A stretch of 61,204 nucleotides of DNA from a virus, in IMG/VR virus record IMGVR_UViG_3300045988_122465. One strand, 5' to 3'. Under the pieces are notes generated by a model that ran no database searches, was not told the origin of the DNA, and worked only from the letters and a program-made list of their open reading frames with translations. Position 1 is the stretch's first letter, and each line of letters starts with the position of its first letter. This document shows positions 146 to 55,292 of the stretch, piece by piece. The position numbers were made by a program, and so were the translations under genes.

Positions 146-171
146 AATTGTATAGTAGAGTTGTGTTTTGA
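146..171 (+). repeat. P' arm repeat (candidate integrase arm site / int promoter element)
   Basis: aattgtatagtagagttgtgttttga, near-identical to 61067-61091; TAtaTTTG box at about 133-140 just upstream. Confidence 0.45.
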
Positions 172-181
172 TTATTCGACT

Positions 182-1414
182 ATGGCAACAATCAGATTAA
201 CAATTTTAAGTTCCATTAAGGAACATGATGGCAGGCTCCCTATCTTAGTCTGCATCTCCCAAAAGAAAGAACGTGCCTACATCAAAACAGAGTTTCTGTT
301 AGATGATATTGCAGAATTCGATAACGGTAAAGTCGCTTACCGGAAGGATGCGAATGTCATGAATAAAAGGCTTGAATTTGTGTTTTCACAATACAAAGAG
401 AAGTTTAATTCTATTGAATGCATAGACTATTTTTCTGCAATTCAGATAAAGCGGATTATAATGTCCAAGGAACGCCCTTCACATATTTCGTTTTTGGATT
501 TCTGGAAACAGCGCATAAATGAAATTAAGGAAGAGGGTAGGGAAAGCTATGCCAAAATGAATGAGGAGACTGTACGGGTGTTTGCTAATTCGGAAGGAGA
601 TGTACCTATTCCTGCAATTAATACTTTATTGGTAGAGCATTTTAAAAAGTGGATGATAAAGAAAGGTTATGCTAATGGGAACATCGGATTGAGATTGACC
701 CATCTGAAAGCCCGGATAAACGAGCTGATAAAATCAGGTGTTCTGAAAACGGATGTGCACCCATTTGCGTACACGAAAATACCAACAGCAGAACCTAAAG
801 AGTGCGATCTTTCAATAGAAGAATTTCAGAAAATACAAAGGGCGGAAGTCGAAGGAAAACGGTTGAATTTAGGTCGGGATATGTTTTTACTCTCTTTCTA
901 TTTGTGTGGTATCAATCTGAAAGATTTATTATCAGTCGATTTGTCGGTGAATATACTTTCTTTTGAAAGAATCAAGACTGTTCATGCTAGGACAGGGAAA
1001 TCAGTTATAACGATACCCATACACAGTGAAGCGAAAGCAATTATCAGTAAGTACATAAATAAAAGCGGATTTTTGGATTTGGGGTATTCTTATACCTATT
1101 CTAACTTGCAAAAGTACATCAATCTTTGCATGAGGGAACTAAAAGAGCACTTGGGAATCAAACAGACATTGTGTTTTTATTCCGCCCGTAAGACTTTTGC
1201 ACAATTCGCCTCTGAACTTGGCATACCTGATGGAGTGATAGATTATTGTCTCGGTCATTCGGATAAGAGTAGGGGAGTTATTCGATATTATACACGCACT
1301 AGAGCTATACAAGCTAAAGCAGCCGTAGAAAGGGTTATTGATTATGTGAATAACCCCGATAAATACAAAGATGTTATAGAATTCAGAGAAAGACTTATTC
1401 TTCTACAGCAGTAA
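182..1414 (+). CDS. int: Tyrosine recombinase / phage integrase
   Basis: ORF 161..1414 (ATG at 182); C-terminal ARKTFA...LGHSDKSRGVIRYY (R, HxxR, Y catalytic boxes); adjacent to attL. Confidence 0.9.
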   Translation: MATIRLTILSSIKEHDGRLPILVCISQKKERAYIKTEFLLDDIAEFDNGKVAYRKDANVMNKRLEFVFSQYKEKFNSIECIDYFSAIQIKRIIMSKERPSHISFLDFWKQRINEIKEEGRESYAKMNEETVRVFANSEGDVPIPAINTLLVEHFKKWMIKKGYANGNIGLRLTHLKARINELIKSGVLKTDVHPFAYTKIPTAEPKECDLSIEEFQKIQRAEVEGKRLNLGRDMFLLSFYLCGINLKDLLSVDLSVNILSFERIKTVHARTGKSVITIPIHSEAKAIISKYINKSGFLDLGYSYTYSNLQKYINLCMRELKEHLGIKQTLCFYSARKTFAQFASELGIPDGVIDYCLGHSDKSRGVIRYYTRTRAIQAKAAVERVIDYVNNPDKYKDVIEFRERLILLQQ

Positions 1415-1475
1415 GAAACAACAGCCTACTTGAAGTCATGTTTCCCAATCTAGATACTTTAAGTAGGCTGTTTCT
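1415..1475. terminator. Bidirectional hairpin between convergent int and HNH genes
   Basis: aacagcctactt (1420-1431) pairs with aagtaggctgtt (1461-1472). Confidence 0.45.
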
Positions 1476-2277
1476 CGTCATACTCCCATCTAAAGCCATC
1501 GTGAACCTCGACTTTCTTTTGTAGACATTGCAGTAAATAATATCTTGAGATGTTGAATTGCTTCAATATGGATTTAACACTATCCCATCTTTTTATAAGG
1601 TTACCTTCCTTGTCATATTGATTTATTGGTCTCATATTTTTCTTGCATGGCTTATATTCTGGTACCTCATTCTTGTTATATGACCATAGAAATCCGCCAG
1701 CGGTTATTTGGTGGGCATATCTATTACAAGCTGATGAAATGTGCCCACAATAAATATTCAATTTTCTACCAGCTTCGCTTGCACTTTCATGTTCAGCAAT
1801 GAAAGTACCATCTTTACTAAACTGATAAACTTTTCTAGGAGCATTTTTCGCTTTATTACGAACTAATGTAGAGAGTTTCTTCGCAATTGCTTCTTTAGAG
1901 GAGGAATTCTGTTTATTCCTTTTATGAGTAATTGGATTGTTTGAATTTTCCTTATATGTAACCCATCTTAAATTGTCTATACTATAATCTATTCTTATAG
2001 TATTTATATGATCTACGCATGGTTTATTCTCTGGATTTGGAATAAAGGCTTCTGCTATTAATCTATGTAATGGAATATTTTGATATTTTCCCTTTATGTG
2101 AAGTCTGACTGTTGGATAACCTTGAGTATTAATTTTATGTGAAATTAATGCCCCTTTTCTAGTCATGGTTCTCCCATTTACCCTAATAATAACACAATCA
2201 AGTGAACGAACCCTACCTAAATTAGATACTTGGTAAAAGCCTTCATATCCCTTGATATCTTTCCAAATTTCATCCAT
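1459..2277 (-). CDS. HNH homing endonuclease (NUMOD4-like N-terminus, HNH_3 core, two IENR1/NUMOD1-like DNA-binding repeats)
   Basis: MDEIWKDIKGYEGFYQVSNLGRVRS..., HRLIAEAF...VDHIN...NLRWVTYKENSNN; likely start at internal ATG 2277; paralog of 34145..34687. Confidence 0.8.
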   Translation of the reverse strand: MDEIWKDIKGYEGFYQVSNLGRVRSLDCVIIRVNGRTMTRKGALISHKINTQGYPTVRLHIKGKYQNIPLHRLIAEAFIPNPENKPCVDHINTIRIDYSIDNLRWVTYKENSNNPITHKRNKQNSSSKEAIAKKLSTLVRNKAKNAPRKVYQFSKDGTFIAEHESASEAGRKLNIYCGHISSACNRYAHQITAGGFLWSYNKNEVPEYKPCKKNMRPINQYDKEGNLIKRWDSVKSILKQFNISRYYLLQCLQKKVEVHDGFRWEYDEKQPT

Positions 2278-2360
2278 GCTTTTTTGCTTTAAAGTTAATA
2301 AATAAAAGGCAGTCTTCAAAGGTCGTGCTAAGACTGCCTTTCTGAATAATCGTGTAAAAA

Positions 2361-2582
2361 TCATACTGTGAGCATATCAATACACGCAGCATGATGATTC
2401 ACGCCCTTATAATGCTGAGAAAACTCTCTAAATTGGTCTAACAGCCCCATCTGTATGATAAAAGAATATAATTCACTCTTAGCTTCTTTCTCAATATAAA
2501 ACCGCTTTTGTACTTCATTTAAAAAGTCGCTGAATACTGGTATTGAATGTGTATTTGAACATTCAATTTCAATTGTTGCCAT
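2361..2582 (-). CDS. Hypothetical 73-aa protein (68/73 residues identical to 33843..34064)
   Basis: ORF track; only 5 of 73 residues differ from the second copy; the nucleotide sequence is also near-identical. Confidence 0.75.
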   Translation of the reverse strand: MATIEIECSNTHSIPVFSDFLNEVQKRFYIEKEAKSELYSFIIQMGLLDQFREFSQHYKGVNHHAACIDMLTV

Positions 2583-3790: not shown

Positions 3791-4582
3791 ATGGAAAAAA
3801 AAAGAGCAAAAGAACTTATTATAAAGCAACAGAATGAAATCGATTCACTCAAAGTATACGAAAACTCTTTAGTTAAACCTTTTCAGTCTTGGAGAGAGCA
3901 GACCCAAGTCGTGATAAAAGCTATTTTTGGAATTAATTCCAATTATTATAAAAGATTTGATGCTTTAGCTTTTTATCCCCAAGTACAATTAATTAGCCCA
4001 TCAATGACTCACAACACCAAAATAAAGGAATCATATTTAAGAGATTTAGATAGATGTGCTACAATGATGGATGGCATGATCGCAGAAATAGAAATTAGGG
4101 AAGATGGTACTAACATCGACTCTAATGATACAATTACCACAGTGCAAAATATCTGTAATCGTTTTCATCAAATATCACGTCAGCTAAAACAACGTCATGC
4201 AAACCGTTCAACTATCGAGATAGTGGATGAATATGATGTGCAGGACTTACTACACGCACTTCTTCGTTTGCACTTCGATGATGTACGCGCAGAAGAGTGG
4301 ACGCCAACTTATGCAGGTGCTGCTTCTCGTATGGATTTCCTTCTAAAAAAGGAGAAGATTGTCATAGAGGTGAAGAAGACTCGGAATAATTTAGGAGCCA
4401 AAGAAGTAGGTGAACAGTTAATGATAGACATAGAGAGATACACCGCACACCCTGATTGCGATACTCTAATTTGTTTTGTTTACGATCCTGAAGGAAGAGT
4501 TGCCAATCCGGTAGGAATAGAACGTGACTTGAACCGAGAAACAGATGCACTAAAAGTAATGACCATAATTACACCTAAATAA
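3791..4582 (+). CDS. PD-(D/E)xK-type nuclease-fold protein with a coiled-coil N-terminal domain (candidate defence effector)
   Basis: C-terminal EYDVQDLLHALLR...SRMDFLLKKEKIVIEVKKTR (D...E-x-K motif); 13 nt downstream of the HTH gene. Confidence 0.6.
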   Translation: MEKKRAKELIIKQQNEIDSLKVYENSLVKPFQSWREQTQVVIKAIFGINSNYYKRFDALAFYPQVQLISPSMTHNTKIKESYLRDLDRCATMMDGMIAEIEIREDGTNIDSNDTITTVQNICNRFHQISRQLKQRHANRSTIEIVDEYDVQDLLHALLRLHFDDVRAEEWTPTYAGAASRMDFLLKKEKIVIEVKKTRNNLGAKEVGEQLMIDIERYTAHPDCDTLICFVYDPEGRVANPVGIERDLNRETDALKVMTIITPK

Positions 4583-4826: not shown

Positions 4827-5114
4827 ATGACATTTGAAGAAGCAATTGCTCTCATTGAGCGAATAAAAGACCAGATTGTCGGTGCTCCAGTTAAAGGTAG
4901 GCTCATTGAATCTTTGTTCATTGGGCCAACCAACTGGGATGAAATGCATGTCTTTATGAATATCAGTTTGCAAAAAGGAGAGGATGAAGCTATCAACGAG
5001 TTTATTGGCAAAAGTTTTTCTGTGTATGGCAGGTCAGTAACTTATATTAATCCGGATCTTCCGCGGTGGGATGTAACCGTGTTAGACGATTGGGAAAAGA
5101 CGATATACAATTAA
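4827..5114 (+). CDS. Hypothetical 95-aa protein
   Basis: ORF track; followed by a strong hairpin. Confidence 0.55.
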   Translation: MTFEEAIALIERIKDQIVGAPVKGRLIESLFIGPTNWDEMHVFMNISLQKGEDEAINEFIGKSFSVYGRSVTYINPDLPRWDVTVLDDWEKTIYN

Positions 5115-5139
5115 AGAGGTAGCTTATTCGGCTACCTCT
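5115..5139. terminator. Bidirectional terminator hairpin
   Basis: agaggtagc-ttattcg-gctacctct, 9-bp stem between convergent genes. Confidence 0.6.
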
Positions 5140-5141
5140 GT

Positions 5142-6428
5142 TTATATCGGAACCAAAGGAGAACAGTTTTCTCGGTTTACAACTATATCACGCATATTAG
5201 GCTTATTATTAAAATTTCGAGATATATTTTTTATCAAATCGATATAATTATCTGTCCTATCTTCGTACTGTCGATAAAAGACTTTAATAGATAGGCAATT
5301 GTCATGCTCAAATAAAGTATTTAATAATGTCCGATCAGAGTTTCCACATGAATGCCCCATTATAAAGACCTGATATGGCCCTAATGCAATAAACTCCAAA
5401 AGACTTCTATAATTTTTGGTTTTATGGTATCTTATAGATTTAATATTCTCTAGAAAATCATTATTCTGTAATCTCTCTATTCTTTCATAATCATCATCTA
5501 GCTCATCACCATATCCGAATATAATGGGATTATTTTCATTGTTAAGCTCTCCATGAATATTAATAATCTTGTCATTTCCATTTTTAACATATAATTTTTC
5601 TGCCGTTTTTGTATAATTAAAATTTAGAATCAAGGTGTTTGGTATAAGATTCTTTTTTTTAAAATTGTCATTATTAAGTTTCTTATCAATATAGTATCTC
5701 AGTTCTTCATCCTTTGTCAAGCATTCATTATATGAAAGATCTCCATGACGGTCAATGTCAAAATCAAAACGTATATCCATATTAGAAAAAAAAGAGTTAA
5801 TAAATGCAGTTTGCTTACAAGTGGCAACTTCTTCAAATTCTACATAACTTGAAAATGCATCTTGTATAGATTGATGTTTTTTCAGTTCTGTGTTTTCAGT
5901 AATCCTAGTTAAATATTTTTCTAGCAATCTTTTTACACTATCAAACTCTTTATTAAGCGTATGGATACTTTCGTTTTGCTTTTGGTAATTTTCTTCTTGA
6001 AGTAGCTCTTTCAATGCCTTATAATATTCATTTTCTATATCTACCCAATTCACAAGAGAACATTGATGAGATATACGTTCAAAAAAATGATTTGTGAACG
6101 TTAAAGTAACTGTCACATTAGAACTAGGATCATTATTATGCTCATCAATTAGTGTATGCAATTTCCATAAAGGACTATCTTCTTTATAAGAAGAACAAGC
6201 TTTATTAACTCCGGTTTTATCATATTCTTTTCCAATTTTTATAAACTGATCTTCATAGTCATTAAGAGGGTGTTTGCCCCCTCCATATTGTTGGTCTAAC
6301 AACCGCCAGTATTTATCATAAATCCTTTCTTCAACAGTATCCCAATAATCATTTATAAAATCTTTATATCCAGTCTTTAAATTGTGAGCTAAATCAAAAC
6401 CGTTACCAATAATTATAATTCTATTCAT
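5142..6428 (-). CDS. abiH: AbiH-family abortive-infection protein
   Basis: N-terminal IIIGNGFDLAHNLKTGYKDFI, LNFNYTKTAEKLY, INIHGEL, VFIMGHSCGNSDRTLL - the characteristic AbiH motifs. Confidence 0.85.
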   Translation of the reverse strand: MNRIIIIGNGFDLAHNLKTGYKDFINDYWDTVEERIYDKYWRLLDQQYGGGKHPLNDYEDQFIKIGKEYDKTGVNKACSSYKEDSPLWKLHTLIDEHNNDPSSNVTVTLTFTNHFFERISHQCSLVNWVDIENEYYKALKELLQEENYQKQNESIHTLNKEFDSVKRLLEKYLTRITENTELKKHQSIQDAFSSYVEFEEVATCKQTAFINSFFSNMDIRFDFDIDRHGDLSYNECLTKDEELRYYIDKKLNNDNFKKKNLIPNTLILNFNYTKTAEKLYVKNGNDKIINIHGELNNENNPIIFGYGDELDDDYERIERLQNNDFLENIKSIRYHKTKNYRSLLEFIALGPYQVFIMGHSCGNSDRTLLNTLFEHDNCLSIKVFYRQYEDRTDNYIDLIKNISRNFNNKPNMRDIVVNRENCSPLVPI

Positions 6429-6504: not shown

Positions 6505-6993
6505 TTATATTTTTAAACATTCAATATTATTATTGTTTACAAAATCTTCAAACTCACCTTTCAATTCCCTACTCAATTTTAATTCGCTATTCCAAAGAGG
6601 TAATCTTTTATTTTGTATAACAGACTCCAATATTAAACAGTATTCTACTAGTAACGGATTGTCATTTTCTGTATTATACCAACATATTTCCAATTTGCAG
6701 ATAGATAGCGCACGCATTTTTTCAGGCCACAGTTTCCATCTAGGAGTCCTTTGCTGCTTCCCAATTATTCGTCTTTTTAGCCCTCCTTTGCGATGCACTG
6801 TCTTTCCATTTTCTATATGCCCTGAACTTCCAATATAAACTGGAACCTTCGTCCCTTTAAAATAACCGTATACAATATACACTCCACAACAATCATCAGG
6901 AATTTGAGCCTTCTCGCATTTTCTATTCAAATTGTCATCAATAGCAAATTTTAAACATCCCTGTTTATTATAGCGATTTAATAAATCAAACAT
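6505..6993 (-). CDS. GIY-YIG-like nuclease domain protein
   Basis: CGVYIVYGYFKGTKVPVYIGSSG...GLKRRI; start overlaps the upstream gene end by 8 nt. Confidence 0.5.
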   Translation of the reverse strand: MFDLLNRYNKQGCLKFAIDDNLNRKCEKAQIPDDCCGVYIVYGYFKGTKVPVYIGSSGHIENGKTVHRKGGLKRRIIGKQQRTPRWKLWPEKMRALSICKLEICWYNTENDNPLLVEYCLILESVIQNKRLPLWNSELKLSRELKGEFEDFVNNNNIECLKI

Positions 6994-7690
6994 ACCTTTC
7001 CAAATGTTTTTTTATAATTTCTGCCATCTCCTTTAACATATCATCCTTTACATCCGCACTTAGCTGACGAGTATGGATTACAAGTTTTCTACCACCGGCA
7101 TCATGATGAGTATAAAACCAATTCCCTTTATTAAACAAAAATCTACCGACATCATCACCATCATAAGTGACACCAAAAATCTTATCTATCTCGCGAATAT
7201 TGTCATTATTCTGAATATAATTAGAACATGCCAATATAATCACAGGAAAACTTTGAATAAAGGAGGATACCTGGAATAATTCTTTCCGTGAGGAAATTCC
7301 ACTTTTATCGGCTTGAGCAGTTCGGAGGCTAGGGGCATCATTTATCTCGGTAGTAAATATTTGAGTTGGGAAATCAACATACCGATTGTGAAATCCTTCG
7401 CTGCCATAGATATAATCTTTTAATCTCTGATACTTGCTCCAAGTATTTACACCCCACCCTTTTGCTACGTTAACATCTTGTTCTACTTTATGACATAACT
7501 CCATAATTGTATCATTACTAACATGATTATCCCACATAGATGCATTGCTGTTATAAAACTCATCAGGTTCTTCCATTGCAGACTCTTTACCCACTATTAG
7601 TATTTTAGAGTTAGGGTTTCCCCAACCAACATATTTACCATTTTGATTACAGTAATTTACAAATTCCTTAAATTCATCTAAGTATTCCAT
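6986..7690 (-). CDS. Hypothetical protein, possibly uracil-DNA-glycosylase-superfamily fold
   Basis: ILIVGKESA (motif A-like), FTTEINDAP, VIILACSN, LVIHTRQLS (motif B-like) in UDG order; TAtaTTTG box about 25 nt upstream of the ATG. Confidence 0.4.
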   Translation of the reverse strand: MEYLDEFKEFVNYCNQNGKYVGWGNPNSKILIVGKESAMEEPDEFYNSNASMWDNHVSNDTIMELCHKVEQDVNVAKGWGVNTWSKYQRLKDYIYGSEGFHNRYVDFPTQIFTTEINDAPSLRTAQADKSGISSRKELFQVSSFIQSFPVIILACSNYIQNNDNIREIDKIFGVTYDGDDVGRFLFNKGNWFYTHHDAGGRKLVIHTRQLSADVKDDMLKEMAEIIKKHLERYV

Positions 7691-7943
7691 AGCATATCAA
7701 TTTTATTTGGACAAATATATATGATTATTTTATATACGACAAATAATAAAAAAAATCCCCGACTACATAGCCAGGGACAAACACAAAGTATAACTCTTGA
7801 AGGTTATTTGTTAACGATTACCGGCCTTCTACTTTACCGGATAAACTTAGTACTTAGAATTAATTAATGTATCATTTTATCCTCCTTTCCTTTAAAACCT
7901 TTTTCCGTAGGAAATTGTTATATAAGTGAAACTTAAACTTTTC

Positions 7944-40504: not shown

Positions 40505-40536
40505 AATCGTGTCAAATTTAAATCAATACTCAATAG

Positions 40537-40608
40537 TTGCGGGGGGCTGAATCGAACAACCGACCTTCACCAAGTCAAAGTGAAAAGCTACCACTGCTAC
40601 ACCCCGCG
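40537..40608 (-). tRNA. Phage tRNA, anticodon GAC (Val) by position, with atypical features
   Basis: CGCGGGG-UG-UAGC-AGUGGUA-GCUU-U-UCACU-UUGACUU-GGUGA-AGGUC-GGUUG-UUCGAUU-CAGCC-CCCCGCA-A; C1/A72 mismatch, U at position 37. Confidence 0.65.
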
Positions 40609-55207: not shown

Positions 55208-55292
55208 TGGCGGGTGATAGAGGAATCGAACCCCTCTCAATTGTGATAATTGGCTGCGCAGCACAAAGCTCTAACCGATAAGCTAACCACCC
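55208..55292 (-). tRNA. 85-nt tRNA-like gene with a 16-nt anticodon loop, CCA encoded
   Basis: GGGUGGU-UA-GCUU-AUCGGUUA-GAGC-U-UUGUG-[CUGCGCAGCCAAUUAU]-CACAA-UUGAG-AGGGG-UUCGAUU-CCUCU-AUCACCC-G-CCA. Confidence 0.6.

Follow-up and report, generated by a model that had tools for sequence, protein, structure and literature searches.

Separable genes for a predicted UDG-fold DNA glycosylase, a candidate GIY-YIG nuclease and AbiH in one cassette of a gut Bacteroides prophage

The cassette considered here is carried by a 61,204-nucleotide (nt) stretch of viral DNA (IMG/VR record IMGVR_UViG_3300045988_122465; the whole stretch is hereafter called the window), which belongs to a common temperate Bacteroides phage recurring in many human-gut metagenomes. 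Two of its genes, referred to as A and B, were initially annotated as a translationally coupled pair encoding a protein with a fold like that of uracil-DNA glycosylases (UDG) and a GIY-YIG nuclease, and were proposed to act as a two-gene DNA-targeting system. The comparative analysis described below does not support an obligate A+B system. Instead, A fits best as a new sequence family, found mostly in Bacteroidota, within an already known kind, the UDG-fold defense glycosylases, while B is probably a divergent GIY-YIG nuclease, as judged from its sequence. Both open reading frames (ORFs), of 234 and 162 amino acids (aa) with an 8-nt overlap, are indeed present on the minus strand, and a third gene follows them:

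6986..7690, minus strand: gene A, 234 aa, predicted DNA glycosylase with a divergent UDG-superfamily fold, from an unannotated and mostly Bacteroidota family
6505..6993, minus strand: gene B, 162 aa, small standalone divergent GIY-YIG-type nuclease candidate
5142..6428, minus strand: AbiH-family abortive-infection gene, 428 aa, starting 76 nt downstream of B

Joint occurrence of A and B was assessed starting from a pattern scan of one genome per species (GTDB, 185,579 species), which returned 73 loci of A. A lack of co-occurrence across genomes had been named beforehand as refuting the proposed system, and the pair was encountered at 1 of these 73 loci only, the single positive (L001) being the same prophage in B. 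xylanisolvens; in the other 72 species genomes A stands without B. The reciprocal view gives the same picture, since 11 of the 11 examined homologs of B from outside this lineage have no adjoining A; they share with B 67, 57 (two proteins, P0127 and P0129), 54, 51, 49 and 41% identity, with four more distant ones in addition. Downstream of B relatives, whose wider gene contexts rest on twelve look-ups, we found AbiH (L085), Mrr_cat (L074, and L147 with one small gene in between), a KAP NTPase (L143), an NS-type endonuclease (L149), unannotated or small ORFs and housekeeping genes. Damaged versions of the cassette were also revealed: A is frameshifted in two contigs from different samples (L112 and L113) that retain intact B and AbiH, B is cut to 84 aa by a deletion in L109 and L110 with A and AbiH intact, and in L002 intact AbiH comes directly after a decayed A (60% identity), without B. 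Occurrence of A without B, of B without A and of variants with one of the genes broken thus defines A and B as separable modules, neither of which appears to need the other.

Against this stands the constancy of the junction. Among IMG/VR contigs with 97-100% identity, at least 23 of 27 keep A of 234 aa, the overlap of 8 nt and B of 162 aa, and AbiH begins 76 nt after B in the intact cassettes wherever the contig extends that far. The sister lineage L081-84, in which A, B and AbiH are 79, 91 and 64% identical to their counterparts in the window, has the same A/B junction. Overlap and spacing preserved in all intact cassettes fit a functional pair as well, and agree with cooperative base-excision restriction, in which A would excise an unusual phage base and B, supplied at fixed stoichiometry by translational coupling, would cut at or near the abasic site. 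Such a pair is chemically sensible, and one promoter and one terminator appear to be common to both genes. Restriction glycosylases of R.PabI type provide a functional analogy, as their apurinic/apyrimidinic (AP) sites are converted to breaks (PMC10273834), although they differ in having a half-pipe fold, in acting on unmodified bases of a recognition site, in the presence of a methyltransferase partner and in being a single protein. Confinement of the pair to one Bacteroides prophage lineage, the absence of A next to even the nearest outside relatives of B and the persistence of variants with inactivated A or B in independent samples all speak against cooperation. In addition, Brig1, a UDG-fold defense protein with alpha-glucosyl-5-hydroxymethylcytosine (5hmC) DNA glycosylase activity (Hossain et al., Nature 2024, PMC11078745), works alone and provides immunity without a dedicated AP endonuclease (PMC11078745). 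Altogether, we regard the cooperative mechanism as unlikely.

The UDG-like fold initially suggested for A is borne out by structure prediction. The AlphaFold2 model has a predicted local distance difference test score (pLDDT) of 95.5 and a predicted template modeling score (pTM) of 0.93, and in a Foldseek search against PDB the top 27 matches all belong to the UDG superfamily (E from 9.2e-4 to ~6e-2, probability up to 1.00, target-normalized template modeling (TM) scores of ~0.40-0.56). They come from four different families and include the family-4 UDG of S. tokodaii (4zbx/4zby), which is the best match, human TDG, E. coli MUG, the family-5 enzyme of T. thermophilus (2d3y) and T. maritima UDG. 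Conserved motifs of A follow core strands 1 (30-34), 2 (111-115) and 3 (150-154) as well as the last one (203-207): in the model, G34-K-E36 comes after strand 30-34, T114-E115 form the end of strand 2, and H206, Q209 and S211 together with L210 come after strand 203-207; by position, this order would correspond to that of UDG catalytic loops. On the predicted structure, A is a divergent member of the UDG structural superfamily. Sequence comparison weighs against this assignment: the Pfam UDG model (PF03167) misses A and matches only 1 of 50 members of the A family, at a noise-level E of 0.16; alignment of the A profile by hhalign with E. coli MUG and UNG is not significant (~0.1% probability); and the TM scores are just moderate. 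The profile of the A family also retrieved nothing relevant from PDB sequences, and in the non-significant alignment with MUG motif 1 is lined up with the GINPG region. With a structural match and no link at the level of profiles, the likeness of A to UDGs is thus visible by structure alone.

As a sequence family, A is well defined. No match was obtained for it in Pfam, NCBIfam, PADLOC or PHROG even at E = 1, and at least 251 relatives at E <= 1e-3 were collected from a 90%-clustered protein collection, all of them unannotated and lacking Pfam domains. Nearly all belong to Bacteroidota, with Tenacibaculum, Flavobacterium, Bacteroides and Prevotella among the genera represented. The peptides quoted in the initial annotation (ILIVGKESA, TEINDAP, VIILACSN and VIHTRQLS) are all found in A and fall on invariant or near-invariant columns of the family, and thus represent the conserved core of a genuine family rather than chance matches. 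In a 50-sequence alignment, residues of this kind comprise E36 (G-K-E), T83-W84, Y87-Q88, F112, T114-E115, R135, L153-A154-C155, Y158, H195 and, within H-T-R-Q-L-S, H206, Q209 and S211. Two relatives, P0035 (362 aa) and P0050 (376 aa), carry a fused N-terminal OB-fold nucleic-acid-binding domain (PF01336; E of 3e-5 and 1e-3, respectively, both under the gathering score), and this putative fusion fits a DNA-directed enzyme.

A was compared with known proteins, Brig1-3 among them, by structure, description and taxonomic profile. Like A, Brig1 is a single protein of ~250 aa, its UDG fold is seen mainly by structure and its best structural match is 4ZBY, the family-4 UDG of S. tokodaii (PMC11078745); it likewise sits in a defense locus. 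In place of the Asn usual for UDGs after strand 2, Brig1 has the acidic residue E147, and A has the invariant E115 in the corresponding stretch. The two differ in taxonomic range, since Brig1 and its listed homologs are actinobacterial and no Bacteroidota name occurs in the Brig1 supplementary tables, whereas A is almost wholly confined to Bacteroidota; unlike Brig1, A is also prophage-borne and predicted to share a transcript with a GIY-YIG gene and AbiH. The UDG-like Brig2 targets 5-(2-aminoethyl)uridine and related thymidine modifications and was described together with eleven further UDG-like clusters in integrons (Getz et al., bioRxiv 10.1101/2025.10.29.685425), and Brig3-BapA combines a 5hmC glycosylase with a deglucosylase (bioRxiv 10.64898/2026.02.25.707755). 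Both resemble A as divergent members of the UDG superfamily, and defense use, mobile elements and AT-rich acquired regions are features of Brig2 and Brig3. The glycosylase of the Brig3 system lies in an operon with a helper enzyme, but this helper, a hydrolase directed at the modification, is not a nuclease. Homologs of Brig2 are distributed mainly among Pseudomonadota (735) and Bacillota (274), compared with 32 in Bacteroidota, and the motifs HTRQLS and TTEIND typical of A are absent from the available part of the Brig2 supplementary text. With canonical UDGs of families 1-6 (UNG, MUG/TDG, SMUG, family 4/5), A has in common the core fold, as predicted, and apparently also the succession of conserved loops that come after strand 1, strand 2 and the last strand, and its H206-x3-L210-S211 may recall the HPSPLS motif of family 1. 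It differs from them by the lack of a four-Cys Fe-S site, C155 being the sole invariant Cys, by G-K-E in motif 1 instead of GQDPY, GINPG or GEAPG, and by insertions of ~40 aa. The pairing had been put forward as undescribed, which holds insofar as no described system combining a UDG fold with GIY-YIG was found in PADLOC-DB v2.0.0 (predating the Brig proteins) or by literature search, yet defense glycosylases with a UDG fold are already represented by Brig1, Brig2 and Brig3.

The assignment of B to GIY-YIG nucleases stands in part, being favored by the conservation of catalytic residues and by weak profile matches that agree with one another, but not by a significant fold match. The peptides GVYIVYG...VYIGSSG...RR are found in B, with a spacer between GVY and YIG of 13 residues and not 10 as initially counted. 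B itself gave no match in Pfam, NCBIfam, PADLOC or PHROG even at E = 1. A first search yielded 20 homologs, an exhaustive profile search extended them to 430 representative clusters (50% identity), mostly standalone proteins of ~140 aa, and a second search of the family gave 448 proteins, with Bacteroidota, Marinimicrobia and Calditrichota among their sources. Conservation within the family (n = 98) is high for G37 (98), Y39 (89, plus 8 F), Y53 (92), G55 (97), R75 (82), E117 (85) and N135 (90), and these residues sit on a beta hairpin, a helix, another helix and a P-x-W-N turn, which is the canonical order of GIY-YIG; the predicted secondary structure is beta-beta-alpha-...-beta-alpha. Weak matches to the Pfam models GIY-YIG (PF01541) and GIY_YIG_2 (PF20815) were given by 18 (best E 1e-4) and 7 of the 98 members, respectively. 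A profile of close homologs found nothing relevant among PDB sequences, and a broader family profile pointed weakly to the GIY-YIG domain of UvrC (E 0.3) and to the N-terminal domain of GRXS16 (E 0.11), which is a GIY-YIG domain as well. The alignment of the family with E. coli UvrC by hhalign superimposed the hairpin at 47% probability, and two family members are named "GIY-YIG domain-containing protein" in UniRef. The structural evidence is less favorable to this interpretation: just one of five AlphaFold2 models of B is confident, the other four having pLDDT of 54-76, Foldseek found no significant GIY-YIG match in PDB, and the GIY-YIG proteins among the BFVD matches rank 7th, 9th and 12th, with sub-threshold E of 0.07-0.2.

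Set against the GIY-YIG superfamily (the N-terminal domain of UvrC, I-TevI and small URI-only proteins), B has in common the GVY...YIG hairpin, the helix with Arg, the helix with Glu and the Asn of P-x-W-N. Its peculiarities are scores below Pfam thresholds, a 35-aa N-terminal extension, an extra beta hairpin, the longer spacer and the absence of a DNA-binding domain, no module of NUMOD or IENR type having been found across the family, whose proteins comprise 140-160 aa. The role of homing endonuclease was considered for B and rejected in view of this missing module, the very small size and the existence of chromosomal homologs in non-phage contexts.

In the initial annotation the pair was placed beside AbiH, and the genes do adjoin; the relation seems to be closer than mere proximity, since AbiH falls within the same predicted transcription unit. 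Its attribution is reliable (Pfam PF14253 at 94.8 bits, where the gathering score is 30.9, E 1.2e-26; PADLOC AbiH, E 1.3e-9). The borders of the unit are marked by the following elements:

7755..7778, minus strand: strong terminator-like hairpin with a 10-bp stem and a T run, 3' of the preceding late gene
7712..7719, minus strand: TATATTTG box matching TAnnTTTG, the -7 promoter consensus of Bacteroides, 22 nt before the ATG of A
5115..5139, both strands: bidirectional terminator-like hairpin immediately following the stop codon of AbiH, common to the convergent ORF 4827..5114

The first terminator-like hairpin would close the upstream late/lysis transcription unit and insulate the cassette. 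Neither a terminator-like site nor a TAnnTTTG box was seen in the 76-nt gap between B and AbiH, and the only hairpin noted within B is a weak one of 5 bp. Hairpins on both flanks (7778..7755 and 5139..5115) and a gap free of such signals thus delineate A, B and AbiH as a single predicted transcription unit. The cassette is AT-rich, with a GC content of 27-34% as compared to 36-45% for the flanking phage genes. The promoter box assigned to the pair is a real match, but the number of such motifs in the window is within chance expectation (76 occurrences found versus 69 +/- 8 expected), so TATATTTG is a candidate cassette promoter for which position is the sole argument, the box alone meaning little. 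Start codons of A and B are consistent with the N-termini of their homologs. The junction reads ...AGG TAT GTT TGA, the ATG of B lying within the last codons of A in the 8-nt overlap (ATGTTTGA). A second TAnnTTTG match (TATGTTTG; 6987..6994, minus strand) falls exactly on this overlap of A stop and B start, and is probably a by-product of the ATGTTTGA junction and not a promoter.

AbiH is the constant gene among cassette variants, which are represented by A-B-AbiH (the window, 27 IMG/VR contigs and L081-84), by B-AbiH without A (L085/86, where B is 67% and AbiH 69% identical) and by the A remnant followed by AbiH (L002). It is also hypervariable, ranging from 64 to 100% aa identity in the L081-L142 prophages, whose A and B are 96-100% and 92-99% identical, respectively; the comparison of these sequences indicates that AbiH alone is under allele shuffling or diversifying selection. 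These properties would be expected if AbiH were the core of the system and its phage-contacting component, with A and/or B as interchangeable upstream modules (a sensor or a second effector) modulating or triggering it, and the common transcription unit agrees with this arrangement. At the same time, AbiH in Lactococcus is a single-gene system and PADLOC treats it as such, no AbiH was found near A at the other 71 A loci (beyond L001 and L002), other B relatives are followed by Mrr_cat, by a KAP NTPase or by an NS-type endonuclease, or lie amid housekeeping genes, and AbiH stays intact where A or B is broken. A literature search for AbiH partners in Bacteroides returned nothing relevant. An AbiH-centered organization appears to be improbable in light of these data.

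The cassette is located in the integrase-proximal accessory arm, which has the tail/lysis genes on one side and the integrase (161..1414, plus strand) on the other. Two further genes of the arm are relevant to its nature:

3791..4582, plus strand: DpnII/MboI-type restriction endonuclease (REase)-domain protein, 263 aa, C-terminal domain with Pfam E 2.9e-58
1459..2364, minus strand: homing-endonuclease-like gene with NUMOD4, HNH_3 and NUMOD1 domains, adjoining the integrase

The first of these proteins matches the Aga_Helical-REase models of PADLOC, its N-terminal part matches the candidate PDC-S35, and the match to PHROG 29450 spans the entire protein; no methyltransferase gene was recognized in the vicinity. 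The position directly upstream of A is occupied in sister prophages by a STAND NTPase-TIR protein or by an ORC/CDC6-like protein (L081:4153-5649, L082:4158-5705), and this replacement implies that the arm exchanges defense cargo, in accordance with the usual picture of a prophage defense hot spot. Farther along the window, genes of tRNA-Val(GAC) (40536..40608, minus strand) and tRNA-Arg(GCG) (55208..55292, minus strand) are found.

Elsewhere in Bacteroidota the neighbors of A are heterogeneous, with defense represented by type I, II and III restriction-modification, DndC, AbiEii, McrBC, WYL and several PADLOC candidate (PDC) families. The only recurrent partner, present at 10 of the 73 loci and absent from the window, is an unannotated membrane/coiled-coil protein encoded upstream on the same strand with a gap of 1-22 nt; its N-terminus is conserved (GKxxDSFKRQxGRDAGKVVSNxxFGDKHSTP), it contains a coiled coil and, at the C-terminus, a transmembrane segment, and it exists in two forms:

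L004:1134-2504, L005:93-1268, L006:2828-4192, L026:8558-9982 and L029:8611-9981: long form of the A partner
L007:9394-9999, L010:55-630, L011:455-1015, L012:2416-2976 and L021:9433-9993: short form of the A partner

The long form has ~200 extra aa with ILYVGINPSYEP, reminiscent of the MUG/TDG motif GINPG, and by sequence this extension could be a second UDG-like domain beside A; searches of Pfam and of PDB sequences with the GINPS-containing C-terminal domain were negative, and its hhalign comparison with the A family was non-significant. As for relatives of B, at L147:2719-6010 a homolog with 57% identity is part of an island that also includes AbiGi, a TIR fragment and Mrr_cat, and three genes off there is a canonical Pfam UDG (PF03167, 168 aa), that is, a UDG different from A near a B-type gene.

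Many neighbors of A and B elsewhere are housekeeping or metabolic genes, and a defense role of the families as a whole is thus tentative. The same observation, with several B-family members amid housekeeping genes, is what one would expect if A were a glycosylase of repair or phage metabolism (for example, removing uracil) and B a homing endonuclease or housekeeping URI-type nuclease that became its neighbor by chance; GIY-YIG genes of phages are often homing endonucleases, and an HNH-NUMOD gene is present in the same arm. The structure of B, small and devoid of a DNA-binding module, does not favor this explanation. Neither does the distribution of A, which is too sporadic (73 loci in 185,579 species) and too variable in its neighborhoods for a typical core repair enzyme and gave no match, as protein or as cassette DNA, in 50,697 GenBank phage records. 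The cassette, moreover, is a separate unit at the lysogeny end, shared with AbiH. A non-defense function is accordingly given little credence here.

The explanation to which we attach about even chances of being right or wrong is that a Brig-like glycosylase A, an autonomous nuclease B and AbiH constitute stacked independent barriers to superinfection, where we infer the activities, the defense role and the substrate. According to this scheme, the region from 7719 to 5115 on the minus strand would be a three-gene accessory ("moron") operon A-B-AbiH. Protein A would turn a non-canonical base of the incoming phage DNA out of the helix and cleave its N-glycosidic bond, and the resulting abasic sites would block phage replication; B would operate as a minimal standalone GIY-YIG nuclease, and AbiH as a separate single-gene abortive-infection module. 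The three genes would be co-transcribed and A and B translationally coupled, yet all would remain autonomous modules and not parts of an obligate two-component machine. DNA damaged by A might be an opportunistic target of B, with neither gene needing the other. One may also imagine a modular base-excision defense built on AbiH, in which A removes a modified phage base, B breaks the abasic sites and both serve as exchangeable front ends of the hypervariable AbiH effector. This combination is a long shot, and if true it would be the first glycosylase-nuclease-Abi system and would give the first mechanistic handle on AbiH.

The dissociation of A and B has a methodological side, as a tight overlap and a common operon did not make a system here, which calls for caution in guilt-by-adjacency predictions for prophage hot spots. 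For the biology of gut Bacteroidota, the value of the finding lies in a large unannotated family of candidate defense glycosylases and not in a new type of system. UDG-fold glycosylases have been recognized as anti-phage effectors only recently (Brig1-3), with the characterized examples all tested in E. coli, Vibrio or Pseudomonas, and the A family is large and has no model in Pfam, NCBIfam or PADLOC. The B family, with its ~430 clusters, is likewise an unannotated group of candidate standalone GIY-YIG nucleases. If A is a defense glycosylase, it would imply the existence of an unknown DNA modification in phages of gut Bacteroides and would represent a missing entry for defense-annotation databases.

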